From: an uncultured Acidobacteriota bacterium | GTDB lineage: Bacteria; Acidobacteriota; Vicinamibacteria; Vicinamibacterales; SCN-69-37 | NCBI GenBank assembly: GCA_963752045.1 | Contig: CAVVWN010000007.1 | Span: forward strand, 157,961-221,960 | Direction of reading: 5' to 3' | Length of the DNA: 64,000 bases | Shown: positions 259 through 55,415 of the stretch, in pieces | How positions within the stretch are numbered: position 1 is the first letter of the stretch | Layout: each line of letters begins with the position of its first letter | Notes under the pieces: generated by a model | What the model saw: only the letters and a program-made list of their open reading frames with translations | Database searches by the model: none | What the model was told of the DNA's origin: nothing | Made by a program: the position numbers and the translations under genes

Positions 259-437
259 GAATCTGGGATCTGGGATCTGGGATCTGGGGGCATCTGGCGA
301 TCTGCCGATCTGCCGATCTGGTGACCGTGAGTCCGGCGGTCGCGTCGGCGGGCCACGGCTCGGCTCGACGGCCGATCCCAGATCCGAAGATCCCAGATGC
401 CGTGAGATCCCAGATCCCCAGATCCCAGATTCAGATG
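259..437. repeat. foldback of GATC-containing 7/8-bp tandem arrays (left arm 261-323, core 324-373, right arm 374-437)
   Basis: Left arm is 4x ATCTGGG then 4x ATCTGSYG-type 8-mers. The right arm is the complementary GATCCCA-type array. Outer ends GAATCTGGGATCTGGG (259-) and CCCAGATCCCAGATTC (-432) are complementary, with one indel further in. It fills the gap between the SDR stop (431-433) and the symporter ATG (240). Confidence 0.9.
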
Positions 438-1210
438 TTCGATCGACTCTGCCCGCCGTCGACGGTGACGCATGCGCCGGTCACCCAGCTGGCGCGCGGC
501 GATGCGAGGAACGCCACGACGGCGCCCAGCTCTTCGGGCCGACCGAAGCGCCCGAACGGAATCTCACGCCGGACGAACTCGGCGATGCCCGCCGGATCGT
601 CCTGCTGGCGCTTCCACCACGAGCCGCCCTCGAACACCATCGAGCCGGGCGCGATGCTGTTCACGCGGATGTTGTCGGGCGCGAGCTCGCCGGCCATGGC
701 CTTGGCCAGGCTGATCTCGGCGGCCTTCACGGCGTTGTAGGTCATGCGGCCGCCGGTCTCGCGGCCGAAGATCGACGCAATGACGAGGATCACGCCCGCG
801 CCAGCCTGCTTCATGTGCGGGGTGACGAGCCGCGACATGCGGATGGCGGGAAAGAGCGTCTGGTCGAGCGCGGCCTGCCACTCTTCGTCGCTCGTCGACT
901 CGATGCCGGTACCGCCGGCCTTTCCGACGTTGTTGACGAGGATGTCGATGCGGCCGAACCGCTCGATCGTTCCGTCGACGACGGCCTGCGCGCCGGCGGG
1001 TGTCGAGACGTCGGCGGTGATGGCCAGCACGGCATTCTCGCGGCCGGCGGCCCGTTCCAGGTCGGCGGCCGCGCGCCCGAGAACATCCGCGCCGCGCGCG
1101 CAAATGGCCACGCGACACCCCTCCTCGACCAGCGCGCGCGCCGAGGCGAGCCCAAGCCCTCTGCTGGCTCCGGTGACGATGGCGACCTGATCAGTGAGTC
1201 CGAGATCCAT
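431..1210 (-). CDS. SDR family oxidoreductase (short-chain dehydrogenase/reductase)
   Basis: ORF 431..1312 trimmed to the internal ATG (MDLGLTDQVAIVTGASRGLG). It has the TGxxxGxG cofactor motif and YNAVK (YxxxK) catalytic motif. The upstream 34 aa lie in a palindromic intergenic hairpin. Confidence 0.85.
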   Translation of the reverse strand: MDLGLTDQVAIVTGASRGLGLASARALVEEGCRVAICARGADVLGRAAADLERAAGRENAVLAITADVSTPAGAQAVVDGTIERFGRIDILVNNVGKAGGTGIESTSDEEWQAALDQTLFPAIRMSRLVTPHMKQAGAGVILVIASIFGRETGGRMTYNAVKAAEISLAKAMAGELAPDNIRVNSIAPGSMVFEGGSWWKRQQDDPAGIAEFVRREIPFGRFGRPEELGAVVAFLASPRASWVTGACVTVDGGQSRSNI

Positions 1211-1227
1211 AGGGAAACACCCAGCAG

Positions 1228-1315
1228 CTAGTGTCCTGCGCACGACGGCTCGGTACGTCTTCCGGGCGCCGCGCTCCGGAAGCCGTGTACCGATCCGTCG
1301 TACGCAGGACACTAG
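1228..1315. repeat. 88-nt near-perfect inverted repeat (long hairpin) between the DUF547 stop and the SDR start
   Basis: Hand pairing of 1228-1256 with 1287-1315 gives 27 of 29 Watson-Crick pairs. An inner stem CTTCCGG (1259-1265) pairs with CCGGAAG (1276-1282), leaving a 10-nt loop. The right arm covers the TAG of the upstream gene (1312-1314). Confidence 0.85.
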
Positions 1316-2124
1316 AGCTCATTCAGACGCCAGTCGAAATTGCCGTACTCCATCCGGAACGAGTCGCGCTCGAGCAACTGCTGTTCCCGATTGAAGAGGT
1401 GAGGATAGACCATCGCGGCAATCGCGCGCTCGATGGGACTCCTGTTCGGCCACCTGCCGGCCGCGATCGGCCCGAACGCGCGCACGAACGCCTCCTCCCG
1501 CCAGCCCATGATGGGCGACACCACCAGGCGATCGCCGGCGATGTCCACCTGCACGCACGAGAGGCGCGTCGCGCACTCGGCGACGACGTCGGTGAGCTGG
1601 GCGTCGAGCCGCCCGGCAGCGAACGCCTCGCTGCGCAGCCTCGGGCTGCCCATCGCGCCCCGACCCAGCGCAAGCGACAGGCGCGCGTCGCCGTACGTGT
1701 CGAGCATCATCTGCTCGATGCCGTCGAGCGTGAGCGTGCGCCCGCCGACCCGGTGCGTGACCGCATCGAACGCGCCGGGAACCTGCCGGACGCTGCCCTC
1801 GGGGTACTCGGACGATCGCGTACGAATGGGATACGCGTCGATGACGGTCCGGAGCACGAGGGCGTTGTAGGCATTCAGCCAGAACGCCTGCTGCTCGGCC
1901 GGCGGCCACCCGGCCACCTCGGCGGCGGGCACGTTGAGCGACGCCAGGTACCGGTCGAGCGAGGAACGCTCGGCGCGAAGCGCCCGGTAATAGACGAGCC
2001 CGTTGCGCACGTAGGTGTCGAGGACGCGGTCGAACACGACATGACGATCTGCCTGGGCCGGCAGGGCCGCATACGACGCGGCGGTGATGAGGAGAGCGAC
2101 GAGACCCTTCATGTCAGCAGGCAT
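1312..2124 (-). CDS. DUF547 domain-containing secreted protein
   Basis: It has a signal-peptide-like N-terminus (MKGLVALLITAASYAALPAQA) and the QQAFWLNAYNALVLRTVIDAYP block typical of DUF547. An alternative start is ATG at 2112. Confidence 0.7.
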   Translation of the reverse strand: MPADMKGLVALLITAASYAALPAQADRHVVFDRVLDTYVRNGLVYYRALRAERSSLDRYLASLNVPAAEVAGWPPAEQQAFWLNAYNALVLRTVIDAYPIRTRSSEYPEGSVRQVPGAFDAVTHRVGGRTLTLDGIEQMMLDTYGDARLSLALGRGAMGSPRLRSEAFAAGRLDAQLTDVVAECATRLSCVQVDIAGDRLVVSPIMGWREEAFVRAFGPIAAGRWPNRSPIERAIAAMVYPHLFNREQQLLERDSFRMEYGNFDWRLNEL

Positions 2125-2157
2125 GATAACGCGACCGCCGCCGGCCGCCGGACCGCC

Positions 2158-3021
2158 TCACCTCTTCCGGGCGTAAACGGTCATGATGTCGCCGAGGTTG
2201 ACCGACGGCTGCAGGCGGCCGAGGCCGAGCGCGGTAGCCATCCGCAGCACGGCCGGCGCAAGCGGCGGCGCCAGCATCACGGCCGCCTTCCAGGCGGCAA
2301 AATCGAGTGGCACCCGCTTGCCGGACCTGTCGAGCCTCGCCATGAGGAAGCCCGTGCCGGACAGCAGGCGCGCAAGCGTCCCGGGCGTGAAGAAATAGAG
2401 ATGCCTCGGCGGAATCATCAGGTGCCAGAACCTGCCCGTCAGCCGTGCCACGAGACTCTCGGCGTCGCCAGTGCTCACGGCCAGATAGCCGCCGGGTTTC
2501 AGCGCGGCGAACGCCTTGTGCAGGCTGACGGCCGGCTCCGGCACGTGCTCGATGTAATCCCACATGGTCACCAGGTCGATCGAGGCGGGCTCGAGCTCGA
2601 CCGTCGCGAAGTCGGCCCGCGCCACGTCGAAGCCGCGTCCAATCGCCTGCTCCGCGGCATACGGCGAAAGTTCCACGCCCCGCACTTCATCGATGCCGGC
2701 GCTGCGCGCCGCCTCGAGGAAGTCGCCGGTCGCGCATCCGACGTCCAGCCAGCGCCGGCGGCCGACGTCGGGCAGCTCGAGCAGGCGCGCGACGCGGCGT
2801 GTGGCGTTCGCGAGACCGACGCCGTCAGGCCCGCCGGCGAACTTCCGGCCGACCTGGAAGAAGGCATCGCCGTAGATGACGTCGAGCTCGGCCGCCGACG
2901 GAATCTCGTTCGTGTAGACGAGCCCGCACGCGCGGCACCGCACGATGGTGTAGCCCCCCTTGCTGAACCGGCGCTCGAGCGCCGTCGTCTCGCCGCAGAC
3001 GTGACAGGGCCTCGAGGTCAT
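2158..3021 (-). CDS. class I SAM-dependent methyltransferase with N-terminal Cys4 zinc-ribbon
   Basis: CHVCG...CRACG zinc ribbon followed by SAM motif I WLDVGCATGDF. The start overlaps the upstream hydrolase stop by 4 nt (3018-3021). Confidence 0.8.
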   Translation of the reverse strand: MTSRPCHVCGETTALERRFSKGGYTIVRCRACGLVYTNEIPSAAELDVIYGDAFFQVGRKFAGGPDGVGLANATRRVARLLELPDVGRRRWLDVGCATGDFLEAARSAGIDEVRGVELSPYAAEQAIGRGFDVARADFATVELEPASIDLVTMWDYIEHVPEPAVSLHKAFAALKPGGYLAVSTGDAESLVARLTGRFWHLMIPPRHLYFFTPGTLARLLSGTGFLMARLDRSGKRVPLDFAAWKAAVMLAPPLAPAVLRMATALGLGRLQPSVNLGDIMTVYARKR

Positions 3022-5589: not shown

Positions 5590-6334
<745 letters not shown>

Positions 6335-7308: not shown

Positions 7309-9645
7309 ATGTCGCCATTGCCTTCCCTCACACGACCAGACGCGACCGCAACCAGCCGCCTTCGTGCGGCCGTCGTGACGCTCGTCGCAGCGTCCATGGC
7401 GACCCTGCTGGCTATCGCGCAGGATGCGCCCCCTGGATGGCCGCGGACCATCGAAACCCAGGGCTACACGATCACGATGTACCAGCCGCAGACCGACCGG
7501 TTCGAGGGAGACCTGCTCGAAGGACGGGCAGCCGTGTCGATCCGGCGCGCCGGCGGCGGTGACGCGACCTTCGGCGCGGTCTGGTTGTCGGCCCGACTCG
7601 ACATCGACCGCGACGAGCGCCTGGCGCGCGTCCGGCAACTGACGATACCCGACGTGCGTTTCCCGGAAGCCACCGACGAACAACGCCAGCAGCTCGTCCG
7701 CCTCCTCGAAACCGAGGTACCGAAATGGGACCTGACGATCGATCTCGATCGGCTCATTGCCGATCTCGACGATGGTCCCGTGGACGCCAACACGCCGGGC
7801 CTCCGGAACGACCCGCCGACGTTCGTCCACGTCACCGAGCCCACCGTACTCCTGCTCTTCGATGGCCAGCCCGTCGTGCAGGATGTCGAGGGCGGCACGC
7901 CTCTGGAGCGCGTCGTCAATACGCCGTTCCCCGTCGTCCGCGAGAAGGGCGGCGCGACGTTCTACCTGTTCGGCGGAAACGACCTCTGGTACTCGGCCAG
8001 GGAGCCTCTCGGCCCCTGGACGGTCACGACGTCGGTGCCGGCGGCCGTGGCGCGGATCGCCGAGGGCGCAGAGGTCGCCGACCCGATGGTCGACGCGAGC
8101 CAGGCTGCGCCGCCGAAGATCATCGTCGCAACCGAGCCGACAGAGCTCCTTGTCACCGACGGCGAGCCGCGCTGGGCGCCCATCGAAGGCGTCGACCTGC
8201 TCTACTGCGAGAACACGCCGTCGGACGTGTTCCTCGAGATCGCCTCTCAGCGGTACTTCGTCGTCGTCGGCGGCCGCTGGTTTGCCGGCCAGGCCGTGGA
8301 CGGAACCGTCAGGTGGACGCACGTCGCCAATGACGAGCTTCCCGAGGCCTTCTCCGACATTCCGGAGAGTTCGCCCAAGGCATCGGTGCTCGTCCATGTG
8401 GCTGGCACCGTGCAGGCCCGCGAGGAAGCACTCGAGAACGTCATCCCCGAGATTGCCGCCGTGAAACGTGATGCGTCGGCCCCGGCCATCCAGTACGACG
8501 GCGCCCCGGAATTCACGCCGGTCCAGCAGGTCGAGGCGATCAGCTATGCGGTCAACACCGCCGCGTCGGTCTTCAAGGTGGACAACACCTACTATCTCTG
8601 CGACAACGCCGTGTGGTACAGGTCGGCGTCGCCAACCGGTCCCTGGCAAGTCGCCACCGAGATTCCGTCGATTCTCTACACCGTCCCCGCGTCGAATCCG
8701 CATCACAACGTGACGTACGTGCGCGTGTACGACGTCACGCCGCAGGTGGTCTACGTCGGCTATACGCCGGGCTACACCGGGAGTTACTGGTCGCACGGGT
8801 GCGTGGTATGGGGAACCGGGTACCGCTACTACCCGTGGTACGGACCGCACTACTACCCGTATCCCTGGACCTGGGGCCTGCACATGTCCTACTACCCGTA
8901 TGCGGGATGGGGCGTGGGTGTGAGCTGGACGAATGGCCCGTTCCGGGTCACGGTGGGCTGGCGGTCCGGCCCGTACTATCGACCGCCCTATTACGGCGGG
9001 TGGTACGGCCCAGGCGGCTACCGACCGCCGTACCGTCCGTATCCGCCTCCCGGCTACCGTCCGCCGGGCTATCGACCCATTCCGACGCCCTACCCCACGA
9101 CGCGACCCGCAACGCCAGGGGCGCGTCCGATGCCGGCCCCGGTGCCGGCGCGACCTGCCATCTACGACAGGCCGGGCGTATCCGATCGCATGGCCCCAGG
9201 TACCTCGCCCGGCAGCCGGCCGCGGCCTGCTCCGAGTCAGATGCCGAACAACGTCTTCACCGATCCCAGCGGCAACATCTATCAGCGGACACCGAGCGGC
9301 GGGTGGGATGAGCGCCAGGGAGGACAGTGGAAACCGGCCGAGGGTCTCGACCGGCCCGCCGGTCCCACGACGCGGCCTTCTGCACCGGCAACGGGTGGTG
9401 CGTCTGACACACCCACCCGGCAGCCGCGCGCGAGCCAGCTGCCGTCCGGTCGCTCCGGTTCCACACCGGCCGTCCGGCCGCCGACGGCCTCACCTCGACC
9501 GTCACAGCCGATCGTGCGGCCGCCGACTGGCGGCGCGACACGTCCGCAACTCGAACGCGATTCGCGCGCCCGGCAGCGAGGCACGACACGATCCGGGTCG
9601 GCGCCGCCACGCCCGGCCGGACGCGGCGGACGAGGAGGGCGTTAG
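7309..9645 (+). CDS. large secreted protein of unknown function, paralog A (aromatic/Gly/Pro-rich C-terminal region)
   Basis: 778 aa with a signal-like N-terminus. It is collinear with and highly similar to the next gene over about 550 aa, followed by a Tyr/Trp/Gly/Pro-rich segment and a Pro/Arg/Ser/Thr-rich tail. Confidence 0.8.
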   Translation: MSPLPSLTRPDATATSRLRAAVVTLVAASMATLLAIAQDAPPGWPRTIETQGYTITMYQPQTDRFEGDLLEGRAAVSIRRAGGGDATFGAVWLSARLDIDRDERLARVRQLTIPDVRFPEATDEQRQQLVRLLETEVPKWDLTIDLDRLIADLDDGPVDANTPGLRNDPPTFVHVTEPTVLLLFDGQPVVQDVEGGTPLERVVNTPFPVVREKGGATFYLFGGNDLWYSAREPLGPWTVTTSVPAAVARIAEGAEVADPMVDASQAAPPKIIVATEPTELLVTDGEPRWAPIEGVDLLYCENTPSDVFLEIASQRYFVVVGGRWFAGQAVDGTVRWTHVANDELPEAFSDIPESSPKASVLVHVAGTVQAREEALENVIPEIAAVKRDASAPAIQYDGAPEFTPVQQVEAISYAVNTAASVFKVDNTYYLCDNAVWYRSASPTGPWQVATEIPSILYTVPASNPHHNVTYVRVYDVTPQVVYVGYTPGYTGSYWSHGCVVWGTGYRYYPWYGPHYYPYPWTWGLHMSYYPYAGWGVGVSWTNGPFRVTVGWRSGPYYRPPYYGGWYGPGGYRPPYRPYPPPGYRPPGYRPIPTPYPTTRPATPGARPMPAPVPARPAIYDRPGVSDRMAPGTSPGSRPRPAPSQMPNNVFTDPSGNIYQRTPSGGWDERQGGQWKPAEGLDRPAGPTTRPSAPATGGASDTPTRQPRASQLPSGRSGSTPAVRPPTASPRPSQPIVRPPTGGATRPQLERDSRARQRGTTRSGSAPPRPAGRGGRGGR

Positions 9646-12049: not shown

Positions 12050-13864
12050 TCAGGCGGGCTCTTCGTGAATCGCCCGCAGGATGGTGTCGCCCAGCACCTC
12101 GGCCTTCTTTGCGCCGATGCCGTAGACCTGTTGGAGCTCGGCCGGCGTCGACGGCCTGAGGCGCGCCAGCTCCCTGAGCGTCGTGTCGTGGAAGATGACG
12201 TAGGGCGGCACGCCGCGCGCGTGCGCGAGCTCGGTGCGCAGGGCGCGGAGGCGGTCGAAGAGCACGCGATCGACACCCTCCCAGGACTCGGCCTCCACGC
12301 GCGACCGGCGCTGCGGCCTGTCCTTCTGCGGCTTCTTCTGACGCGCCAGCTCGAGGCCATCGGCGGCGAGTGGATCCCTGAGCAAGGCCACGCCCTCGGC
12401 GGTGAGCTGCAGCACCGGGTACTGGTCGTCGGTCTGCCGGACGAGCCCGCGCGCCACGAGCTGGTCGATGTAGCCGCGAACCTCGTTCATCGTCGCGTCG
12501 CGCAGGAGGCCGAACACGCTCAGCTGGTCGTGGCCGCGCTCGGTGACCGGACCACCCTCGCTGCCGCGCAGCACGTTGGTCACATGCGCGGCGCCGAACC
12601 GGCCACGCAGCCGCGCCACAGCCGACAGAATCTTGCGCGCAAGTGTCACCGGATCGCTCACCGACTCGAGCTCGCCCAGGCAGTAGTCGCACGCGCCGCA
12701 GTCATCTCGCCCGTACGCCTCGCCGAAGTAGCCGACCAGTCGCCGATGCCGGCATCCGACGCTGCCCGCATACCGCTCCATGTCGCGCAGGAGCGCGCGC
12801 CGCGCGTCGGTGAACGCCCCGTCCTGCTCGAACATCGTCTTCCACCGCATGAAGTCGCCAGCCGAGTAGATCAGAACGCATTCGGCCTCGAGACCATCGC
12901 GACCCGCGCGGCCAGACTCCTGCTGGTAGTGCTCGAGCGACTGCGGAGCCCCGGCATGAACGACGAACCGCACGTTCGAGCGATCGATGCCCATGCCAAA
13001 CGCCACGGTCGCCACGACGACGTCGGCCTCCTCGTTGAGAAAGGCATCCTGATTGCGATGACGCGTCTGGTCGTCGAGTCCGGCGTGATACGCGAGCGCG
13101 CGCACGCCTTCGGCCTGAAGCCACGAAGACAGCGCGTCCACTTCACGACGTGACTGGCAGTAGACGATGCCGGCCTGTCCGGCGTGCCGCGACAGCACGT
13201 CGGTGAGCTGCTTCTTGAGCACGCCCCGCGCCAGCACCCGGTAGACCAGGTTTGGCCGGTCGAAGGAGCCTACAAGCTCCACTGGATCGCGGAGTCCAAG
13301 CTGCGAGACGATGTCCTGTCGCACCCGCGCGGTGGCCGTGGCGGTGAAGGCATGAAGCGCCGCGTCGGGCCACCGATCGCGCAGCCTGGCGAGCTGCCGG
13401 TACTCGGGGCGGAAATCGTGGCCCCACTGGCTGATGCAATGCGCTTCGTCGATGGCGAAGAAGCTGAGCGGCTGCCGATCGACCAGGTTCAGGAAGCTCC
13501 CGCTTCCCTCCCCCACCAGCCGCTCCGGCGCGACGTATAGCAGCCGGTAGCGTCCGGTACGAATGCCCTCCGCCACCTCGGCGCGCCGATCGGGCGTGAG
13601 CGAGCTGTTGTAGCAGGCGGCAGGCACGCCGTTTTCCACGAGCGTGTCCACCTGGTCCTTCATGAGCGAAATGAGCGGGGAGACGACCACGGCAAGACCG
13701 TCCATCAGGAGCGCCGGCGCCTGAAAGCAGACCGACTTGCCGCCGCCGGTCGGCAGCACCAGCAACGAGTCGCGCCGGGCGAGGATGGCGTCCATCGCCT
13801 CCCGCTGATGCGGGCGGAACGAGGAGAAGCCCCAGTAACGCGACAGGACTTCCTGAAGGGACAT
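12050..13864 (-). CDS. recQ: ATP-dependent DNA helicase RecQ
   Basis: It has FRPHQREAM, LPTGGGKS, DEAHCISQWGHDFRPEY, a Cys4 zinc module (CRHRRL...CGACDYC) and a C-terminal HRDC-like region. Confidence 0.95.
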   Translation of the reverse strand: MSLQEVLSRYWGFSSFRPHQREAMDAILARRDSLLVLPTGGGKSVCFQAPALLMDGLAVVVSPLISLMKDQVDTLVENGVPAACYNSSLTPDRRAEVAEGIRTGRYRLLYVAPERLVGEGSGSFLNLVDRQPLSFFAIDEAHCISQWGHDFRPEYRQLARLRDRWPDAALHAFTATATARVRQDIVSQLGLRDPVELVGSFDRPNLVYRVLARGVLKKQLTDVLSRHAGQAGIVYCQSRREVDALSSWLQAEGVRALAYHAGLDDQTRHRNQDAFLNEEADVVVATVAFGMGIDRSNVRFVVHAGAPQSLEHYQQESGRAGRDGLEAECVLIYSAGDFMRWKTMFEQDGAFTDARRALLRDMERYAGSVGCRHRRLVGYFGEAYGRDDCGACDYCLGELESVSDPVTLARKILSAVARLRGRFGAAHVTNVLRGSEGGPVTERGHDQLSVFGLLRDATMNEVRGYIDQLVARGLVRQTDDQYPVLQLTAEGVALLRDPLAADGLELARQKKPQKDRPQRRSRVEAESWEGVDRVLFDRLRALRTELAHARGVPPYVIFHDTTLRELARLRPSTPAELQQVYGIGAKKAEVLGDTILRAIHEEPA

Positions 13865-13878
13865 CAGGACATCATACG

Positions 13879-13987
13879 GGTAACGACAGGTACGACAGGT
13901 ACGACGGGTACGACAGGTACGACAGGTACGACAGGTACGACAGGTACGACAGGTACGACGGGTACGACGGGTACGACGGGTGCCTCA
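13879..13987. repeat. tandem array of 9-bp unit GGTACGAC(A/G): 10 perfect units (13889-13978) plus a degenerate unit on each side
   Basis: Counted by hand. It reads (C/T)GTCGTACC on the recQ sense strand and ends 14 nt before the recQ ATG. Confidence 0.95.
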
Positions 13988-13993
13988 TGAAGA

Positions 13994-14039
13994 ATTCGGG
14001 GAGCCGGCCGGGTCTGAGTGGCCCGGTGGCTCCCCGAAT
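13994..14039 (-). terminator. stem-loop terminator candidate downstream of the outer-membrane protein gene
   Basis: Perfect 12-bp arms ATTCGGGGAGCC (13994-14005) and GGCTCCCCGAAT (14028-14039), followed on the minus strand by TTCTTC. It lies 27 nt after the stop at 14067. Confidence 0.6.
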
Positions 14040-14066
14040 GTCGTCAATGCGCCGAAGTGCGTGCGC

Positions 14067-14735
14067 CTAGCCGCCGAACTTGATGGCGATGCCGCCCGAG
14101 ACTTCGAACTGGTGCGAGTACTTCGAGTCGCCGACCACGTAGCAGCCCCAGAAGGGGTCGCACCACCAGCCGGCAGCCTCCGACGTGATGTAGGTCGGCG
14201 TCCAGCGGACACCGGCCTTGAAGCCAACGTTGCGGCTCTGTCCGGCGTAGAACTTCACGCCGGCGCCCCAGGTCGTGCTGAATCTCGTCGTCGATTCGGT
14301 GCTTCGTGCCTGGCCGAGCGAAGTGAAGTCCACGCTGCCGTAGTTGGTGGCGCCGAACCCGATCATCACGTAGGGGCGCACGGCGGCGTCGAACTCGCCG
14401 AAGTTGTAGCCGAAGTAGCCGTGGTAGTTGTCCACGTTCATGTCGCCAACGGTCGTCGTGGCCGTGCCGCGCAGCCGCAGTTCCGACATCTGCCGGCCCC
14501 ACTGGAAGCCGAACTCGCCGCCGTTGCGGGCGATGTAGCCGGCCGAGAAGCTGAACGACATCCCGTCGACGGGTTCGATGCGGTTGTACGCGTTTCCGTC
14601 CGGCGCCTCAACGGCATCGCCGGAAATTCCGTTGCTCACGGTCCAGCCGATGTTGCCGGTGATCTCCATCTGCGCCTGCGCTGGCGCCGCGAGCGCCACA
14701 ACCAGGCCCGCTCCAACTAGTGCTCTCGAGAACAT
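14067..14735 (-). CDS. outer membrane beta-barrel protein (OmpW/OmpA-N-like small porin family)
   Basis: GGAG lies upstream of ATG 14735. It has a signal peptide MFSRALVGAGLVVALAAPAQA and an alternating aromatic/Gly-rich beta-strand pattern through to the C-terminus. Confidence 0.7.
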   Translation of the reverse strand: MFSRALVGAGLVVALAAPAQAQMEITGNIGWTVSNGISGDAVEAPDGNAYNRIEPVDGMSFSFSAGYIARNGGEFGFQWGRQMSELRLRGTATTTVGDMNVDNYHGYFGYNFGEFDAAVRPYVMIGFGATNYGSVDFTSLGQARSTESTTRFSTTWGAGVKFYAGQSRNVGFKAGVRWTPTYITSEAAGWWCDPFWGCYVVGDSKYSHQFEVSGGIAIKFGG

Positions 14736-14928
14736 CAAGTCATCTCCTTCACTGATCCGAGGGCCTGTCACTCGTCCCTTCTGGACTGCCCTCAACACTT
14801 CAAGCTATCACACGCACAGCCAGGTAGTTCCCCGGTTTCCATGAAAAGGTGTTCACAAGTGCACACTGAGGATACTGGCCTGCACCACCGGCGGCGGTGT
14901 TGCCGCGGCATATACTTCGCCCACGACA

Positions 14929-46147: not shown

Positions 46148-47185
46148 ATGGTCTCGCCCGGGCTCTTTCGCATCGTCCGCTGCCCAGACTGTGCGGGTCC
46201 CATTCATCCGGATGCGACGGCCGCCCGCTGCGAGCGCTGCGGCCGCACGTTCGACGCGGCGGCCGGGTATCTGGATCTTCGTCCCTCAACGGCCTTCGCG
46301 GAAAACACGAAGTATCTCGACGCCGAGTTGCACGCCGACGCCCGCCACGAGACGATCGCGCCGCCGCTGCTCGGGTCGAAGATCCGGCAGGACATGCTGC
46401 GGGCGTTTCTCGCGCCGGGTGCGGGCGACCGCGCAATCGACCTCGGCTGCGGGAGCGGACGCGCGCTTGCGTGGAACACGGGATCGGGAGCCGTGCTCAC
46501 GGGCATCGACATCAGCCCGTACTTCGCTCGTGAAGCGCTTGCCGGTCACGACCTGCTGCTCGGCGACCTTCGGCGGCTTCCCCTGCGCGACGCCGCCTTC
46601 ACAAAGGCCTGGACGCTCGACGTCGTCGAGCACGTCTCGCCCGATGCGCTCGAGCAGGTGCTCGCCGAAGCGAACCGCGTGCTCGCTCCAGGCGGCGCCC
46701 TGTTCGTCTACTCGCACGTGCGCAAGAACGGCTGGATCGCCGGCGGGGTCCGTGCGGTCAACAGGCTCGCCGCGCTGCTCGATCGGGCCGGCGCGCTCGA
46801 CCTCACGCAGGAACGGCTTCGCAAGTCCGACCATCTCAATCCGCTCGCCGACCACGAGGAACTGGAAGCGTTCGCCGCCCGCGCCGGATTCAGCATCGAG
46901 CGCATCACCTTCTATACGCCGATCGTCGGCGCACTCGTCGAGAACGTCCTTGTTCGCATGGGGGAACGGATGCTCGCAAGGCGGGCGGTCAGCGCCGGCG
47001 CGGCCGCGAACGCCCACGATCCGGCCGCCCTCAAGGCTGCCCGATCGGCCGCCAAGGCCCGGGTGCGCGCGAAAGGCGCAACCTACCGGATACTCGTGCT
47101 GCTCTCGGCCGTCATGAAGCTGGACATCTGGCTCTTCGGTCGCATCAGATCGGGGCCGTTCTTTGCGCTGCTCAGGAAGACATGA
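46148..47185 (+). CDS. class I SAM-dependent methyltransferase with N-terminal zinc-ribbon and C-terminal hydrophobic helix
   Basis: It has CPDCAG...CERCG, SAM motif I IDLGCGSGR, post-I LLLGDLRRLP and a C-terminal YRILVLLSAVMKLDIWLFG. Confidence 0.8.
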   Translation: MVSPGLFRIVRCPDCAGPIHPDATAARCERCGRTFDAAAGYLDLRPSTAFAENTKYLDAELHADARHETIAPPLLGSKIRQDMLRAFLAPGAGDRAIDLGCGSGRALAWNTGSGAVLTGIDISPYFAREALAGHDLLLGDLRRLPLRDAAFTKAWTLDVVEHVSPDALEQVLAEANRVLAPGGALFVYSHVRKNGWIAGGVRAVNRLAALLDRAGALDLTQERLRKSDHLNPLADHEELEAFAARAGFSIERITFYTPIVGALVENVLVRMGERMLARRAVSAGAAANAHDPAALKAARSAAKARVRAKGATYRILVLLSAVMKLDIWLFGRIRSGPFFALLRKT

Positions 47186-47188
47186 GCG

Positions 47189-47233
47189 GGTACGACAGGT
47201 ACGACGGGTACGACGGGTACGACGGGTACGTGG
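47189..47233. repeat. tandem array GGTACGAC(A/G), 4 units plus 1 degenerate (left arm of a foldback)
   Basis: It starts 3 nt after the methyltransferase TGA (47183-47185). The unit is the same as at 13889-13978. Confidence 0.95.
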
Positions 47234-47383
47234 AACGAGCTGGCGCTGGCCAGCCTTCTTCATGTGCTGGAGACGGTCGAATCAGAGAAGAGCTCGTGAG
47301 CCCTGTGGGAGTAGTGGCGAGCCGGCTTCGGTCACGTGCGGGAGTCCGCATTTGAGTAGAAGATGACAAGCTTCAGGTTCCTC

Positions 47384-47452
47384 GTACCCGTCGTACCCGT
47401 CGTACCTGTCGTACCTGTCGTACCCGTCGTACCCGTCGTACCTGTCGTACCC
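47384..47452. repeat. tandem array GTACC(C/T)GTC, 7 units plus a partial unit (right arm, reverse complement of the left arm)
   Basis: Counted by hand. It ends 11 nt before ATG 47464 of the first GT4 gene. Confidence 0.95.
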
Positions 47453-47463
47453 GAGATCTCTTG

Positions 47464-48609
47464 ATGCGCGTTCTCTACGTCGCCACCGACCAGACCGTTC
47501 CGGGCACGCTCGGCGGGTCGGTGCACGTGCAGGCTGTGGCCAACGGGCTGGCCGCGCGGGGCCACGACGTCCACGTCGTCGCCCGGCAGCGTGGACCGTG
47601 GCCGGAAGGGCCGGCCACCTGGCACGCCCTCGCCCCGCCGTTCGGCATCCGTCACCTCCGCTGGATGCATCAGGGCACTGTCACACGACTCGGACAGCGA
47701 ATCCGACCCGACGTCGTCATCGAGCGCTACCACAACTTCGGCGGCGAGGGCGTCCTGGCCGCCCGGCGCCTCGGCGTGCCCGCCGTGCTCGAGGTCAACG
47801 CGCCGGTCATCGACTATCCGGGATCGACCAAGTCGCGTCTCGACCGCGCATTGCTCGTCGAGCCGATGCGGCGCTGGCGCGATCGCGTCTGCAGGCTGAC
47901 GGACCTGTTCGTCACGCCAACGGCCGACATCCTGCCGTCGTGGGTCGACCGGAGCCGCGTCCTCGAGATCGAATGGGGCGCCGACGTTCACAGTTTCCGG
48001 CCGGACGTGCCCCGGGCGGCCGGTTTTCCCGGCGACCGCAGCCGCATCTGGTGCGTGTTTGCGGGCGCGTTCCGCTCGTGGCACGGCGTCGTCCACCTGG
48101 CGGCGGCGCTCGCGCGACTCCATGCGGCCGGCGACCATCGATTCGGCGCGGTGCTCATCGGTGACGGCCCCGAGCGGCCCGCCGCCGAACGCGCGGCGCG
48201 GGGCGTCCCTGGCATCGTCTTTACCGGCGCCGTGCCCCACGCGGCGATGCCGGGCTGGCTCGCTGCCGCCGACATCGGCGTGGCGCCATTCGACCCCATC
48301 AAGCACGGACCGCTTCGACTCGGCTTCTACTGGTCGCCCTTGAAGATCTTCGAGTACATGTCGGCAGGGCTGCCGGTCGTCGCGCCGGCGTTGCCGAGGC
48401 TGGGACGACTGATTCACACCGGCCGCGAAGGCCTGCTGTACGATCCGTCCGACCCGCGCGCACTCGACCACGCGCTCGGGGAGCTGGGCGATCCGGCCGT
48501 GCGGCGCCGAATGGGACAGGCCGCCCGTGTCCGCGTGGTCGACGAGTTCAGCTGGGAAGCGCATTGCGCGACGCTCGACGAGCGGCTCGCGCGCCTGGTA
48601 TCCGCATGA
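47464..48609 (+). CDS. glycosyltransferase family 4
   Basis: It has MRVLYVATDQTVPGTLGGSVHV and a C-terminal GT-B block WSPLKIFEYMSAGLPVVA. ATG 47464 is preferred over TTG 47461. Confidence 0.85.
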   Translation: MRVLYVATDQTVPGTLGGSVHVQAVANGLAARGHDVHVVARQRGPWPEGPATWHALAPPFGIRHLRWMHQGTVTRLGQRIRPDVVIERYHNFGGEGVLAARRLGVPAVLEVNAPVIDYPGSTKSRLDRALLVEPMRRWRDRVCRLTDLFVTPTADILPSWVDRSRVLEIEWGADVHSFRPDVPRAAGFPGDRSRIWCVFAGAFRSWHGVVHLAAALARLHAAGDHRFGAVLIGDGPERPAAERAARGVPGIVFTGAVPHAAMPGWLAAADIGVAPFDPIKHGPLRLGFYWSPLKIFEYMSAGLPVVAPALPRLGRLIHTGREGLLYDPSDPRALDHALGELGDPAVRRRMGQAARVRVVDEFSWEAHCATLDERLARLVSA

Positions 48610-51163: not shown

Positions 51164-52705
51164 GTGCTCCCCCGCTCGCCCGCCACGCGTGTCTCAGCCG
51201 TCGAGTGGACCCTTGCGGTCGCCATCGTCGGGCTCGGCGGCGCGCTCCGCTTCGCGTTCATCGGTTCTGGCGTGCCGGCCGCGGTCGCCTCCGACGAGCC
51301 GTTCCTCATGGAACGCGCCTTCGCCATGCTGGTGACCGGGGATTTCAACCCGAGGGTGTTCGACTACCCGTCCTTGTACATGTACCTGCAGACGGCGGTG
51401 GCCGCGCTGCGTTTCGTGGTCGGCGCATTCCGGGGCGAGTGGTTTCAGCTCAGTCACGTCACGGCGTCCGATTTCTACGTCTGGGGCAGGGCGCTCACGG
51501 CACTTCTCGGCACGCTCACCGTCCTCCTCACCTGGCGTGTCGGCCGACGGCTGACTCCGGCGGCAGGCCTTTTCGCGGCGCTCTTCATGGCCGTGCAGCC
51601 CCAGCACGTCCGCGATTCCCATTTCGCGCTGACCGACGTGCCAATGACCTTCTTCGTCACGCTGGCCCTGCTCGCCAGCGTGCGGGCGGCCGAGGCGCGG
51701 AGCCTCCGCGCCTTCGCGCTCGCCGGCGCGGCGGTCGGGCTCTCGGCTGCCACCAAGTACACCGGCGGGATCGCGCTCGTCATCCCGCTCGCGGCCGTGG
51801 CGTGGACCCGCCTGGACGCGGCGACCAGGCTGCGCGCCGCCCTGGCCGTCGTCGGCGGTTCGGCGGCTGCCTTTCTGATCGGGGCTCCGTACACGGTGCT
51901 CGACCTGCCGGCATTCCTCAATGGATTCGGCTACCTCGCGAAAGCTCATGCCGGAGGCCCCGCGCCGGCGACCCCGGCCTGGTGGACCTACCTTCTCCAC
52001 CTGAACATCAACCTCGGGCTTCCTTTGTTGTGCCTGTCGATCATCGGCGTCGCCGTCGGCGCGATACAGGCCTTTCGCGCCGCGGCTTCCACGCGCGTCG
52101 TCTGGGCGACCGCCACCGTGTTCACGGCCGCCTTCTACCTGGAAGTCTCCGGACAGACACTGATCTACGGCCGCTATCTGCTCCCGATCCTGCCGCCGCT
52201 CTTCGTCCTCGCCGGCGGGGCGCTCGACCTGGGCCTCTCACGCTGGGGTCCCGTCGTCCGATCGAGTCGCTGGCGACGTGCCCTCGTCGTGGTGGCCGTC
52301 GTGGTTCTCGTCAGTCCGGCCGTCCTCCGAACGGGCACGCTGCTCTCGACGATGTCGAAGACGAGCAGCAACGAACTCGCGTATGACTGGATAGTCCAGA
52401 ACCTCCCTGCCGGGTCGAGAGTGGTCGTCGAGGCCGAGGGCATGAAGCTGCCGAACCGCTTCCGCGCCCGCAACGTCCAACGGCTCATCGACGAAAGCTA
52501 CGACGAGCTCGCTGCCGGCGGCGCCGAGTATCTCGTCGCCTCGTCGCTGGCTTCTCGAGGCGCGATGGCCGGCGGCTCCACCGATGAAGGCCGCGCGTAT
52601 CAGGAGCTGTTCGCACGCATGCAACTCGTGTTCGCCGTAAGGCCGACCGACCAACATCCCGGTTCAGAGATCCGGGTGTACCGCCTGGCGACGCGGGCGC
52701 CGTGA
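51164..52705 (+). CDS. GT-C fold glycosyltransferase (family 39/83-like, ArnT/PMT_2 type)
   Basis: It has about 10 or more TM helices and a first-loop motif ASDEPFLMERAFAM. The SAATKYTGG region is typical of phospholipid-carrier-dependent glycosyltransferases. GTG start lies 9 nt after the previous stop. Confidence 0.7.
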   Translation: MLPRSPATRVSAVEWTLAVAIVGLGGALRFAFIGSGVPAAVASDEPFLMERAFAMLVTGDFNPRVFDYPSLYMYLQTAVAALRFVVGAFRGEWFQLSHVTASDFYVWGRALTALLGTLTVLLTWRVGRRLTPAAGLFAALFMAVQPQHVRDSHFALTDVPMTFFVTLALLASVRAAEARSLRAFALAGAAVGLSAATKYTGGIALVIPLAAVAWTRLDAATRLRAALAVVGGSAAAFLIGAPYTVLDLPAFLNGFGYLAKAHAGGPAPATPAWWTYLLHLNINLGLPLLCLSIIGVAVGAIQAFRAAASTRVVWATATVFTAAFYLEVSGQTLIYGRYLLPILPPLFVLAGGALDLGLSRWGPVVRSSRWRRALVVVAVVVLVSPAVLRTGTLLSTMSKTSSNELAYDWIVQNLPAGSRVVVEAEGMKLPNRFRARNVQRLIDESYDELAAGGAEYLVASSLASRGAMAGGSTDEGRAYQELFARMQLVFAVRPTDQHPGSEIRVYRLATRAP

Positions 52706-54771
52706 CGTCCGTCATGCCAGCCGCGCCGGTCGTGGCCCTCTGGTGTGCCGGTACTCTCGGGCATTTTCTGCTGACCGCCGTGTGGGTCGATCGTTTCGGC
52801 CGAACCGGCGAGACCGGCGACGCCCGCTTCTTTGCCACCATGCTGTGGGCGACGGCCACCTTGAGTGCGGCGCTTTACGCGGTTGCCTCGACGGTCGGCC
52901 TCGACGTGATGACCGTCGTCTGCCTGCTCGCGGCCGGTCATTTCGTCACGTGGCGCCTCGGCGCCGGGAGGTGGGGGGCACATCTCGCCCACCCCCCGGC
53001 GCCGACCCGTGCGCTCGAAGTCGCCGCGGCCGTGACGCTCGGTGCGATCGTGCTTCGATGGGTGATCGTCGCCGCGCCAACGCTCGAGGTGAGCGGGACC
53101 GATGCGGCGCACTATCACATTCCGAACGCCGTGAACCTCGCCCTCGGCGCCAGTCCGTTCGACCTGCCGCCGAGCTCGCATCTGTACCCGATGGGCAGCA
53201 GCATGCTTGCCGCCTGGTTCATCCTGCCGTTCGGCGACGCGCTCCTGACCGACCTGACGATGGTCATCCCGTTCCTGCTGCTGGCATCGGGATTGGGCTG
53301 GCTCTTCCGCCTGACGACCGGGCTTTCCGGCCTTGCGTGGATGACGTGGCCCGTGCTCGCGCTCTTTGGCACGCGCCTGTTCCGGTCGGCGAGCCTCATG
53401 TCTGCCGACCTGATGTTTGCCGCAACGGTCACGGCTCTGGCTGCGCTCCTGTCGGCGATCGTCCTCGAGCGACGGCTGTCGCGGTGGTCACTCGTCTCGA
53501 CCGCGCTCGCCGCCGGGCTTCTGCTGGGTGCGAAGACCACCGGACTCATCGCGCTCGTCCTCCTCTCCGCGCCCGCGGTTGGGATCCTCGCCGTGATGGC
53601 CTGGCGCGGCATGGTCAGGATCGACGTGCGGCCGGCCGCGCTGACGTCGCTCGTCTCCGGCGTTGCGTTGGTTGCGGCCGGCGGGATCTGGCTGATTCGA
53701 AACTGGTGGGTATGGGGATCGCCGGTCGTGCCGAACGGCCTGACGCTCTTGGGCATTGAGATCTTCGCCGGCGTTCCGTTCGAGCGGTCCACCTACCTCT
53801 CCGTGCTTGGCGATCTCGCACGCGACCCGGCGTACCCGCTCGCCGAACGCGCCCGTCACTACATCAGCGAGTGGCTGAGCCCCTGGTACTTTCTGGCACT
53901 CGTCCCGATGGCGGCGATTCCGATCGACGCGCTCATCAACCGGCTGCGCGGCGGCCCGGGCGAACCCGCCGTCCGGCGGCTCGCTCTGCTGGCTCTCGTG
54001 GCGGGCACCATGGCGCCGATGCTCTGGCTGCTGGCCGGGGCACCCTGGACGAGCCTCGAGTGGACACGCGGGATGGCCCTGCGTTACGCGCAACCCTGGT
54101 GGGCCCTGCTGCCACTCGTGGCCACGGTCGGACTGTTTCCGGTGAGCGTTCCCTGGTACCGGCGGCCGATCCCCGCGGCCATCGCGGGTGCGGCACTGGT
54201 GACTGGAAGCATGATCGCCCTCAGCGCCGACGCCGGCATGCCGTATCCGCCACTGCCCACCGCAGCGACGTTACTCGGCGCTGGAATGCTGTGGGTGTGG
54301 GCCCGGCCGGGTGTGCGGGGGCGGATCTGGCAGGGCATCGCCGGCCTGGCCGTGATCTCGATCGCGTTCGCGGCATGGACGGTCCGGCTCGATGCGGACG
54401 CGCGCGCGGCGAGCGCCGCGGCCGCATCAGCGGTGCCGCCGACACCCGTGCGCCTCATCTACGAGGCGGCGCAGAATCACGAAGCGGCAAGCGGCAGGAC
54501 CTGCACGCAGCGCCGTTTTTTCGTGACCACACGGCTCGACGAGCCGCTGGGCCTCCAGGGCGTGGACTTCAGCAATCTCGTGTTCTATGCCGCCCGCGAC
54601 GTGGCCGTGACCTCGACGGTCGATCCGCTCGGAACGTGTGACTACGTCATCAGCTCGCGGGCCGTGCTCACGACGAAGAAGGGCGTGGATCTTCTCGGCG
54701 CGGTGAACCCCTACGCGGCCACGGTCGAGATCGCCGAGGCCCCTCCGTTCGTGCTCCTCGGCAAGCGCTGA
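52702..54771 (+). CDS. large polytopic membrane protein, possible GT-C-like glycosyltransferase or polymerase
   Basis: GTGA overlap with the previous gene. 689 aa, hydrophobic helices throughout, and an early-loop motif GTDAAHYHIPNA. Family not recognised with confidence. Confidence 0.5.
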   Translation: MTSVMPAAPVVALWCAGTLGHFLLTAVWVDRFGRTGETGDARFFATMLWATATLSAALYAVASTVGLDVMTVVCLLAAGHFVTWRLGAGRWGAHLAHPPAPTRALEVAAAVTLGAIVLRWVIVAAPTLEVSGTDAAHYHIPNAVNLALGASPFDLPPSSHLYPMGSSMLAAWFILPFGDALLTDLTMVIPFLLLASGLGWLFRLTTGLSGLAWMTWPVLALFGTRLFRSASLMSADLMFAATVTALAALLSAIVLERRLSRWSLVSTALAAGLLLGAKTTGLIALVLLSAPAVGILAVMAWRGMVRIDVRPAALTSLVSGVALVAAGGIWLIRNWWVWGSPVVPNGLTLLGIEIFAGVPFERSTYLSVLGDLARDPAYPLAERARHYISEWLSPWYFLALVPMAAIPIDALINRLRGGPGEPAVRRLALLALVAGTMAPMLWLLAGAPWTSLEWTRGMALRYAQPWWALLPLVATVGLFPVSVPWYRRPIPAAIAGAALVTGSMIALSADAGMPYPPLPTAATLLGAGMLWVWARPGVRGRIWQGIAGLAVISIAFAAWTVRLDADARAASAAAASAVPPTPVRLIYEAAQNHEAASGRTCTQRRFFVTTRLDEPLGLQGVDFSNLVFYAARDVAVTSTVDPLGTCDYVISSRAVLTTKKGVDLLGAVNPYAATVEIAEAPPFVLLGKR

Positions 54772-54787
54772 CCCGCCGGGCGATCGG

Positions 54788-55294
54788 TCAGCGCAGACCC
54801 GCGCGCACGCGCAGGCCGGCAATCCAGCCGGCGATGGCCTCGGACCGATCCGCCGCCGGGACGCTCCCAAAACGGTTCTCGATGTACGCCCGGATCGTCA
54901 CTGCATCTTTGAGCCAGGCCTCGAGCTCGTCCTCACTCATCCCGGCTTCCCCGAGCAGGACCCGCGTATCGACAGCGGGATCGAGCCGCGACCGCCAGCG
55001 TTCGCGTTCGGCGTCGACGAGATCCGGATCGGGCGGCGCGGGATTGAACCGGGCCACCTCGGCCACCATGAGCCAGTGGTTCTCGAGCGCGCGCTGAATG
55101 TCCGCATCGGTCGTCGCCTCGGCCGCGACGAGCTGCAACTGACGAGCCCGTCTCACATCGAGCTGGGTGATCACCTGATTACCCACACGCACGAGCACCC
55201 GGTCGACCTCGACCTGGGCGCCAACAGGAACGGCCGCAACGCCCATCAACACACCCATGACCGCCGAAGCCCACCGTGCCCTCGAAGATCTCAT
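54788..55294 (-). CDS. periplasmic SurA-N-terminal-domain-like chaperone candidate
   Basis: ORF trimmed to MRSSRARWASAVMGVLMGVAAVPVGA (signal). VDRVLVRVGNQVITQLDVRRA resembles the SurA_N start. It lies last in the tamB-bamA gene string. Confidence 0.45.
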   Translation of the reverse strand: MRSSRARWASAVMGVLMGVAAVPVGAQVEVDRVLVRVGNQVITQLDVRRARQLQLVAAEATTDADIQRALENHWLMVAEVARFNPAPPDPDLVDAERERWRSRLDPAVDTRVLLGEAGMSEDELEAWLKDAVTIRAYIENRFGSVPAADRSEAIAGWIAGLRVRAGLR

Positions 55295-55320
55295 CACCAC
55301 CACCCCCGTCGCCGCACCCC

Positions 55321-55415
55321 CGAACCCCGAACCCTCGGACCGTCGGACCGTCGGACCCCCGGACCTTCGGACCCCCGGACCGTCGGACCGTCGGACCCTC
55401 GGACCCTCGGACCTC
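55321..55415. repeat. tandem array of 8-bp unit CGGACCNN: 10 units (55336-55415) preceded by 2 degenerate CGAACCC units
   Basis: Counted by hand. It directly abuts the TAG (55416-55418) of the bamA-type gene and ends 26 nt before ATG 55294 of the next gene. The 8-bp period is incompatible with coding. Confidence 0.95.

Follow-up and report, generated by a model that had tools for sequence, protein, structure and literature searches.

The window analysed here is a stretch of 64,000 nucleotides from an uncultured Acidobacteriota bacterium (contig CAVVWN010000007.1, positions 157,961 to 221,960). Four of its intergenic gaps, here called loci 1 to 4, are occupied by tandem arrays of very short units. 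This raises the question of what such arrays are and how they came to lie directly beside the ends of genes. We consider it probable that they belong to foldback-like insertion cassettes, either as their arms or as single arms left over from them, and that these cassettes resemble the intervening sequences (IVSs) of rRNA genes. In relatives, inverted pairs of arrays enclose, across spacers of about 470-1000 nt, a gene for a four-helix-bundle (4HB) protein (PF05635, TIGR02436).

Tandem arrays and the gene between their arms

Tandem Repeats Finder (TRF) reports seven arrays in the four gaps, with 3.6-12.4 copies. All seven are intergenic according to direct reading of the sequence, Pfam assignments and the orthologues of the flanking genes. 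The window has a GC content of about 69%. Forty dinucleotide-preserving shuffles of it contained no array (period 6-10, at least 3.5 copies, score of at least 50). The arrays are real and far above chance expectation. An assembly artefact was ruled out because they recur in finished plasmids and in assemblies made independently from short and from long reads. A sequence-only reading of this DNA had listed six arrays in four gaps; the gaps stand, while the count has to be raised by one. Its statements that the density is unusual, that the periods are 7, 8 or 9 bp and that two loci (1 and 3) are inverted pairs were borne out. A search of the whole window (1-64000) against Rfam returned no family at the gathering score, including no rRNA.

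The 9-mer GGTACGACR fills three of the arrays, at locus 2 (13.9 kb) and locus 3 (47.2 kb), a sharing which the sequence-only reading had overlooked. One genome per species was scanned for 3.5 units of this 9-mer, which gave at least 96 loci. Of these, 62 come from eight metagenome-assembled genomes (MAGs) of Acidobacteriota/Vicinamibacterales, with at least 17 loci in one MAG. The best protein matches of the window are to named Vicinamibacterales, and one MAG contig (L074) has 84.6% DNA identity to it over 2.7 kb. Within the same 8-kb loci, other units occur, often as inverted pairs (AACTTCG, TTGGGGC, CACGGAGG, GGTCCAAG, CAATGAGG, GGGCTATT, CGGGAACA). Inverted pairs were seen for at least 12 different units, and solo arrays are about as frequent as pairs. 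A close variant of the 8-mer of locus 4 is present in L023 and L031. The suspected family-like pattern is thus clade-wide, with dispersed units and inverted pairs in the Vicinamibacterales relatives.

Matches to the 9-mer outside Acidobacteriota (Streptomyces and others) were set aside. Judged from their flanks, most of them seem to be in-frame coding repeats (Gly-Thr-Thr or Tyr-Asp-Gly) and appear unrelated to the intergenic arrays. An array of this 9-mer, with a near match to the GGAAC...CTTCTT inner motif described below after it, is also present in a contig binned as Phycisphaeraceae (L042, 5935-6130); either the element was transferred laterally or the contig was binned wrongly. In L074 (3988-4030), the linker of a class II (B12-dependent) ribonucleotide reductase contains five in-frame GGTACGACR units, which encode GTTGTTGTT..., that is (GTT)n. 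The orthologue in the window (at about 42290) lacks these units and has only a degenerate 'ggtgcgacgggtgacg' there. Arrays with a 9-bp period can evidently, from this example, survive inside genes.

What lies between the arms is best seen in L020, L078 and L091. In each, inverted 9-mer arms about 540 nt apart enclose one open reading frame (ORF) of about 130-145 residues. The products match PF05635 (23S rRNA intervening sequence protein; E = 9.5e-20, 2.4e-14 and 3.3e-11, respectively) and also TIGR02436 (four helix bundle protein). A hidden Markov model (HMM) built from 124 4HB proteins was searched against all fetched DNA. It recovered the three genes just named and found a 4HB gene between the 7-mer arms AACTTCG and GTTCGAA in L084, another between the 8-mer arms GGGGCAAT and CATTGCCT in L077, and a fragment of 37 residues between the arms of L080, a decaying copy. 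A PF05635 ORF thus lies between like arms in L020, L078, L091, L084 and L077, and likewise in L177-L179. The acidobacterial 4HB protein matches XCC0516 of Xanthomonas campestris (PDB 2GSC, five chains; E = 8.6e-10). PADLOC gave no convincing match of the protein to a defence model. Most of the 139 close homologues found for the acidobacterial 4HB protein are on contigs of only 0.5-5 kb. These short contigs fit short-read assemblies that break at arrays, so the elements are probably under-counted in metagenomes.

The association was also approached from the side of the gene, in a sample free of array selection. This sample comprises 19 4HB genes fetched by protein homology alone, three acidobacterial (L177-L179) and 16 from plasmids. 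All 19 are flanked by inverted arrays with units of 7-10 bp. Each of the 16 plasmid genes has tandem arrays on both sides, with a period of 7 (8 in one case) and with left and right units matching in inverted orientation. These genes are from Cyanobacteriota, Bacteroidota, Chloroflexota, Spirochaetota and Bacillota, which makes six phyla when Acidobacteriota are counted. In AT-rich genomes, the arms have units such as AAAAGCT, AATTCAA, AAGTAAA and ATTAGTG.

The plasmid 4HB genes (L184-L199) are mostly located between co-oriented neighbours, many of which are defence genes: cas6/cas4 (twice), cas2/cas1, cas10/cmr3, hsdS/hsdR and drmD/MmeI. The slot between DUF1156 and Swt1-HEPN is occupied by a 4HB gene twice, in two phyla and with the same GATTTTA unit. 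One gene lies between those for a resistance-nodulation-division (RND) adaptor and its permease, and another precedes recF.

Two plasmids have cas6 and cas4 flanks that are 99% identical and differ by the entire 849-nt block of arrays plus 4HB gene (L184, 333-1181). At this site, the presence of the arrays goes with that of the cassette, and so does their absence. In the other plasmid (L200, 433-705), an unrelated palindromic element of 273 nt, bounded by GTAGGTTGGGTT...AACCCAACCTAC, replaces the cassette. The breakpoint is about 7 nt past the cas6 stop, and the slot after cas6 may be a recurrent site of insertion or exchange. The annotated cas4 of Anabaena sp. 90 starts within the right side of the cassette (L184, 1114-1180), so that its first residues (..TVTCHLSPVTS..) are encoded by the heptamer arm; a cassette-free relative has a different Cas4 N-terminus.

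The interiors between like arms vary. The inner end of many 9-mer arms continues into GGAAC(G/C)NGCTGGCGCTGGCCATCTTTCTT, and a motif search found good matches to this inner motif confined to the flanks of these arrays. In paired arms, the two inner motifs are inverted, and the whole unit is therefore a long imperfect palindrome. In L091, the GGAAC motif is found on both sides of the 4HB ORF, while the inner motif of locus 3 is the core of the ORF-less copies L072, L095 and L067. Between like arms there can be the core alone, nothing at all, or a 4HB gene, which has the GGAAC motif in some cases and lacks it in others. There are also forms without the gene and forms with a single arm. The ORF-less palindromes, including locus 3 of the window, look like deletion derivatives of gene-bearing cassettes. 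The inner motif was also considered as a promoter for an extracytoplasmic function (ECF) sigma factor (GGAAC-N-TCTT). This was set aside on informal grounds, its two conserved parts being a variable 13-18 nt apart and the copies being inverted and able to pair with each other.

Insertion, turnover and inversion at orthologous sites

One or two relatives were compared per orthologous site. Around locus 3, relatives keep the gene order NrdJ, Rce1-like protein, methyltransferase and glycosyltransferase (GT4). Two contigs with 88% GT4 identity have a gap of 1 nt at this site (TGAcATG), compared to 278 nt in the window; the one with readable DNA reads '...aaatcTTGAcATGcgc'. The gap measures 22 nt in a relative with 81% identity, and a relative with 78% identity contains a mini element of 151 nt, each arm of which has 3-4 units. 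On this comparison, the composite structure at locus 3 is an insertion into an operon junction, because the 88% relatives have only the 1-nt gap. That its ends touch a stop and a start codon follows largely from this. A TGA is found on both sides of the element in the window and in L181, versus the single TGAcATG at the empty site. This could be a duplication of 3-4 bp or the result of selection for a stop codon. Direct repeats were not seen at the other inverted pairs in a listing of oriented flanks.

At the site of locus 4, the gap is 14 nt long in a relative with 62% identity, while one with 80% identity has GGTRCGACR 9-mers right after the stop, where the window has GGTCCGAS 8-mers. As one substitution and one deletion separate the two units, unit and period drift at a fixed site. 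Upstream of recQ (locus 2), synteny is lost in 80 metagenome relatives (39-75% identical), most of which lack an array; in L124, other units occupy the gap. Deep positional conservation is absent at this gap, and the relatives are too distant to define an empty site.

The glgP site was compared in three genomes. The two arms have 9 and 6.6 copies in L020, 24 and 15 in L177, and 11 and 8 in L178. The unit is the 9-mer in two genomes and, on both arms of the third, a 10-mer (GGTGACGACR / TCGTCACCYG). Relative to glgP, the cassette with its 4HB gene has opposite orientations in L020 and L177. Comparison of these orthologous sequences shows that arrays change copy number and unit length by turnover, that both arms change together, and that the cassette interior can invert between the arms. 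The L020 locus also has about 2.4 kb of extra DNA compared to L177 and L178 (5210-7652). It separates the right arm from a third array (7601-7652), which has the same unit and abuts a conserved gene for 152 residues. Such arrays may be points at which other DNA recombines or inserts.

The 4HB proteins of the glgP site are 62-74% identical, versus 84-90% for the flanking glgP DNA, which suggests replacement of the cassette. Exchange through the arms would also fit an origin in which the arrays came first, as stop-proximal sites where a protein or recombination system of the host binds or lands, and 4HB genes and palindromic cores were inserted later. The abundance of solo arrays and the differing contents between like arms agree with this order of events. 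At the two empty sites examined, however, the arrays are missing along with the interior, and inverted arms are not expected from insertion into one pre-existing array. We regard this origin as unlikely.

A complete cassette has the order gene end, (unit)n, leader, PF05635/TIGR02436 4HB gene, (reverse-complement unit)m, gene end. The window would hold derivatives that lack the gene: two arms with a palindromic core at locus 3, two arms with a 53-nt centre at locus 1, and solo arms at loci 2 and 4. The transcript is predicted to fold into a long stem based at the upstream stop codon. By analogy to the 23S rRNA IVS, the insert would be looped out, or cut out by RNase III, and hence be tolerated at operon junctions. 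Replication slippage would lengthen the arms, and template switching between them would homogenise them and keep them complementary. The 4HB protein may, again by analogy, bind the arrays as a pentamer, which we take to be related to the Avd accessory protein of diversity-generating retroelements. The sequence-only reading had considered a repeat-reading protein; the 4HB protein of complete cassettes would be the natural candidate. The adjacency to stop codons could reflect targeting, or survival only where the ribosome-binding region of the downstream gene was spared.

Several points weigh against this reading. The long copies encode the 4HB protein only (130-160 residues), with no transposase within the arms. 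There is no clear target-site duplication, the possible TGA duplication at locus 3 being the only candidate. A six-frame HMM search of the window found no 4HB gene or remnant, including in the 151-nt centre of locus 3; since the window has no such gene, its descent from cassettes is inferred from shared units, the inner motif and intermediates elsewhere. The solo arms of loci 2 and 4 are unable to form a hairpin. The 7-mer of locus 1 is absent from all other fetched loci. RNase III processing and a role of the 4HB protein are argued by analogy only. Finally, the acidobacterial loci were selected for carrying the 9-mer, which biases their context statistics; their abundance figures are lower bounds, and the genes in them were called with a script of our own that uses codon usage.

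Loci of the window, placement rules and other proposed functions

Features of the four loci are collected in Table 1. In the window, array ends lie 0, 1 and 2 nt from three stop codons (431-433, ending at 47185, and 55416-55418, respectively), and 20, 15-18, 10 and 21 nt from four start codons (240, 13864, 47464 and 55294, respectively), as read directly from the sequence. The start at 47464 is that of the annotated 381-residue protein P0121, and the one at 55294 is backed by the lengths of orthologues (162-167 residues, compared to 168). At locus 1, about 20 nt separate the 5' end of the first arm from the start codon of the symporter gene (238-240, minus strand), and the second arm begins at or within the TGA stop (431-433) of the minus-strand gene on the other side. 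At locus 4, it is the degenerate inner end that reaches to about 21 nt from the next start.

Table 1. Arrays, arms and cores at the four loci of the window, with the genes that border them (SDR, short-chain dehydrogenase/reductase; SAM, S-adenosylmethionine).
Feature	Position	Strand	Description	Basis
Locus 1			between SDR gene (431-1312, -) and Na/Ala symporter gene (1-240, -)	Pfam
Array	261-288		ATCTGGG x4, 100% match	TRF
Array	292-320		ATCTGCCG x3.6	TRF
Array	374-430		GATCCCA ~x7.4, degenerate; reverse complement of the 261-288 array	TRF
Locus-1 arm	258..322	+	(GGGATCT/ATCTGGG) x4, then (GATCTGCC) x3.6; G-rich strand on +	TRF, sequence, 2-unit scan
Locus-1 centre	321..373	unstranded	unique 53 nt, loop and upper stem	sequence, blastn, fold
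Locus-1 second arm	373..433	-	degenerate (GGGATCT) ~x7.4 on minus strand	TRF, sequence, 2-unit scan
Locus 2			between OprF-like gene (14067-14798, -) and recQ (12050-13864, -)	Pfam
Array	13883-13981		ACGACRGGT x11	TRF
Locus-2 solo arm	13880..13981	+	(GGTACGACR) x11; 5' end 15-18 nt from recQ start (13864, -)	TRF, sequence, Pfam
Locus 3			between SAM methyltransferase gene (46148-47185, +) and GT4 glycosyltransferase gene (47464-48609, +)	Pfam
Array	47187-47230		CGGGTACGA x4.9	TRF
Array	47382-47453		TCGTACCCG x8; reverse complement of the 47187-47230 array	TRF
Locus-3 left arm	47187..47233	+	(GGTACGACR) x5, 1-3 nt past methyltransferase TGA (47183-47185)	TRF, sequence, fold
Locus-3 inner motif	47232..47261	+	GGAACGAGCTGGCGCTGGCCAGCCTTCTTC; recurs at inner end of GGTACGACR arms in other genomes	blastn, oriented flanks
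Locus-3 centre	47231..47381	unstranded	151 nt	sequence
Locus-3 second inner motif, inverted	47354..47381	-	GGAACCTGAAGCTTGTCATCTTCTACTC	sequence, oriented flanks
Locus-3 right arm	47380..47453	-	(GGTACGACR) x8; outer end 10 nt from GT4 ATG (47464)	TRF, sequence, fold
Locus 4			between Omp85 barrel gene (55416-56348, -) and gene for 168 residues (54788-55294, -)	Pfam and orthologues
Array	55316-55413		ACCCTCGG x12.4	TRF
Locus-4 solo arm	55316..55413	-	(GGTCCGAS) x12, 2 nt past TAG (55416-55418) of Omp85/BamA barrel gene	TRF, sequence

Loci 1 (190 nt) and 3 (278 nt) have inverted arms without an ORF and give predicted stems of at least 45 contiguous pairs, while loci 2 and 4 have a single arm each. 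The predicted RNA fold of locus 1 (238-433, -) has -120.4 kcal/mol (z = -8.6), with a stem that starts from nt 2 of the UGA. For locus 3 (47187-47453), the values are -162.3 kcal/mol and z = -9.9, with an uninterrupted stem of 45 bp from 1 nt after the UGA. The centre of locus 1 had no relatives in the other loci by blastn.

These positions follow a general placement rule. When 81 arrays are oriented as GGTACGACR, the 5' end nearly always abuts a same-strand stop or an opposite-strand start, stop-side junctions being, for example, TGAcg or TAGacg directly followed by GGTAC. All seven arrays of the window have the 5' end of the G-rich strand beside an ORF end in this way. In 72 array-bearing gaps of the relatives, the median distance is 7 nt on the stop side (at most 5 nt in 43% and at most 10 nt in 61%) and 47.5 nt on the start side. 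That the arrays are set against gene ends, as stated in the sequence-only reading, is thus correct for the window and its relatives. The spacer that remains when the element is subtracted is at most 40 nt in 33% of the gaps, where 2.9% are expected for insertion uniform per intergenic base and 43% for one insertion per gap. A TA or TGA/TAG target site was considered and dropped: many outer flanks are TA-rich, but several start-side flanks lack such stretches.

The same placement and orientation rules agree with a published class of G-quadruplex (G4) repeats (PMC4692102). In the interpretation given there for GGGNATC arrays, four or more G-tracts close to the end of a gene would fold into a G4, either as DNA or as RNA, and thereby influence expression or stability. 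Array 261-288 is indeed (GGGATCT) x4 followed by GGGGG, a canonical G3N4 motif, and 9-mer units with R = G give GGGTACGAC, a G3N6 motif. However, about half of the 9-mer units have AGG rather than GGG (7 of 11 in array 13883-13981), many units of the clade lack a G3 tract (e.g., AACTTCG, GGTCCAAG and CAATGAGG), and G-tracts are missing altogether from the 4HB cassette arms of AT-rich genomes. A G4 function also leaves the paired arms, the enclosed gene and the empty sites unexplained, and we judge it quite improbable.

Another proposal was that the arrays are variable-number tandem repeats (VNTRs) of the host, or contingency loci, in which the copy number tunes transcription or translation of adjacent genes. 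The copy number does differ among relatives at the same site, so this part of the proposal stands, and the 13880-13981 array fills the whole region upstream of recQ, where a promoter is expected. The gene context speaks against tuning: the arrays hug stops rather than promoters, and the neighbours are housekeeping genes (SDR, recQ, GT4, bamA). Gene pairs flanking arrays (63 tandem, 18 convergent, 15 divergent) show no bias compared to all gene pairs (264, 75 and 76, respectively), so that divergent gaps are not enriched (15 of 96 arrays versus 76 of 415 gene pairs). Contingency simple sequence repeats lie in an ORF or between promoter elements, whereas the arrays here follow stops or fill operon spacers. 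At locus 3, which was inserted into a 1-nt operon spacer, the entire structure is missing in close relatives while the operon is unchanged. A tuning role is very unlikely.

It had also been noted that each unit embeds a short palindrome (GATC, GTAC or GGWCC), which led to the idea of methylation-dense epigenetic switches. The palindromes are present in all four window units, but do not hold as a rule: 15 of 38 clade units have a 4-bp palindrome, which is at chance level (18.8 +/- 2.8 in composition-matched shuffles; P(count >= observed) = 0.96). Variants at orthologous sites, GGTGACGACR and GGTGCGACR, have lost GTAC. By Pfam, no gene for a DNA methyltransferase, nor one for a restriction enzyme, is adjacent in the window. 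For the methyltransferase at 46148-47185, the matches are to general SAM-dependent families (Methyltransf_11/25/12), and by our own reading of these families it probably acts on a substrate other than DNA. A methylation switch is highly improbable.

A few observations concern the surroundings of individual loci. Between the stop of the OprF-like gene (14067) and the array at locus 2, which has no partner arm, a long GC-rich inverted repeat was spotted by eye at 13994-14041 (attcggggagcc...ggctccccgaat, then TTCTTCAT on the minus strand). It looks like the terminator of the OprF-like gene, but a consensus scan for sigma-70 promoters and terminators around 13600-14300 made no call, there or elsewhere in that region. 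Two direct copies of GGACATCA (13859-13874) overlap the recQ start; their minus-strand reading is ATGTCCTGATGTCC, with two ATG codons and a stop directly after the first. Next to locus 4, the gene for BamA is apparently split (55416-58362, -): an ORF with five POTRA domains (56062-58362) overlaps the Omp85 barrel ORF (55416-56348) by about 287 nt in a different frame, and the source annotation has only a barrel fragment of 230 residues (P0241). The cause is either a frameshift error from long reads or a real pseudogene or programmed frameshift.

Comparison with known systems

Cyanobacterial arrays of the heptamer type have been known for decades, those of Xanthomonas since 2015. They were read as G4 regulators or used only for strain fingerprinting, and we know of no agreed origin for such dispersed arrays. 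The 4HB "IVS protein" family is widespread and structurally solved. As a tentative generalisation, which may well fail, short-period intergenic arrays across bacteria (the cyanobacterial short tandemly repeated repetitive (STRR) sequences, GGGAATC in Xanthomonas, the acidobacterial 7-10-mers) could be arms or footprints of one unrecognised class of foldback-like mobile cassettes with a PF05635 4HB gene as cargo. The 23S rRNA IVS would be the case of insertion into rDNA, and the 4HB pentamer would recognise the arrays or help to propagate them. This ties together, in a testable way, the arrays and the 4HB family. If true, it would provide an origin for a large share of bacterial minisatellites and a model for how rRNA IVSs arose, explain the breaks of metagenome assemblies at 4HB genes, and point to a nucleic-acid substrate for the 4HB protein. 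In genome annotation, the arrays would have to be treated as insertions, not as promoters or regulatory switches.

The sequence-only reading did not recognise a described repeat class. The same placement and orientation rules are, however, found in the dispersed heptamer arrays of Rehm et al. 2015 (GGGAATC in Xanthomonas, GGGGAYT in Nostoc PCC 7120; PMC4692102), and TAACTGA arrays have been described as well (PMC4679880). A Xanthomonas genome has about 186 loci with 2-26 units per array; the arrays lie nearer the 5' neighbouring ORF, and 70-75 convergent pairs were counted. The authors interpreted them as sequences that form G-quadruplexes and noticed no connection with mobile elements (PMC4692102). 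Repeat #15 of their supplementary file 2 is GGGAATC x4 in X. campestris (622956-622983). It lies at a distance of 6 nt to bccP (XCC0517) and extends over the start of XCC0516, which is labelled as a conserved hypothetical protein only (PMC4692102). XCC0516 is the crystallised 4HB protein (PDB 2GSC) referred to above, which thus has a GGGAATC array at its start.

The arrays of Rehm et al. and those studied here have in common the short tandem units, the occurrence of one unit at many loci of a genome, the intergenic location mostly between co-oriented genes, the many convergent inverted pairs, and a length that varies between relatives while the type is kept. Here, the units have 7-10 bp, mostly 9, in an acidobacterium of 69% GC, and G-tracts are inconstant; the paper makes no mention of a 4HB gene or a mobile-element link. 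A unit of about 7 nt (6-9) in a few to tens of copies fits the present arrays, although relatives reach 24 copies and 10-nt units, and a single genome can have GGTACGACR at many loci. The older cyanobacterial STRR heptamers, described by Mazel et al. in 1990, are reportedly the same kind of sequence. The TAACTGA arrays reported by MacGregor in 2015 from Beggiatoaceae, cyanobacteria and Bacteroidetes are also dispersed intergenic heptamers near gene ends, with suspected lateral spread between phyla (PMC4679880). They differ in being mostly forward and 1-43 nt before starts, in a unit with stop codons in all frames, in having one inverted pair only, and in that no 4HB link is reported (PMC4679880). 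In the literature covered, which is incomplete, nothing was found on acidobacterial arrays, and 4HB genes were linked to tandem arrays only by the observation on the Coxiella IVS given below, not in general.

MITEs (miniature inverted-repeat transposable elements) and palindromic elements of the REP/REPIN kind (REP/RAYT, Correia; PMC3733652) are similarly small, non-coding, palindromic and intergenic, occur in many copies with presence/absence variation, and have longer gene-bearing relatives. Their ends are fixed terminal inverted repeats, whereas the arms here are variable tandem arrays; the gene in the long copies here is no known transposase, and there is no clear target-site duplication. 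Loci 1 and 3 have the inverted ends, the small size and the non-coding nature of a MITE, but no transposase-encoding relative. REPs and REPINs are marked by a palindrome of 20-40 nt that has a GTAG/CGTC tag and is associated with a RAYT gene, whereas the arms here are tandem arrays and lack such a tag. Foldback transposons of Drosophila and other eukaryotes have long inverted arms of short tandem subrepeats, are variable in length, and include some copies with a coding segment. They are eukaryotic and mobilised by a transposase, and the likeness to the elements described here would be one of architecture only, with no homology implied.

A parallel in gene content is the 23S rRNA IVS of Coxiella, Leptospira and Brucella, with its S23p / four-helix-bundle ORF. 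Its place is within the 23S rRNA gene, in helix 25 or 45, from where it is excised by RNase III, while the elements described here lie between protein-coding genes, have long tandem arrays as arms and, in the window, are ORF-less. Loci 1 and 3 share with it the long stem formed by inverted repeats, though neither the rRNA location nor the PF05635 ORF. These IVSs carry PF05635 in an element of about 430 nt, with inverted repeats forming a long stem and an ORF that is prone to decay (PMC4990558). In Coxiella, the IVS has a PF05635 ORF, a terminal stem of 28 bp that is cut by RNase III, and, at the 5' end of the element, variable tandem heptamers with the unit GACAGAT (PMC4990558).

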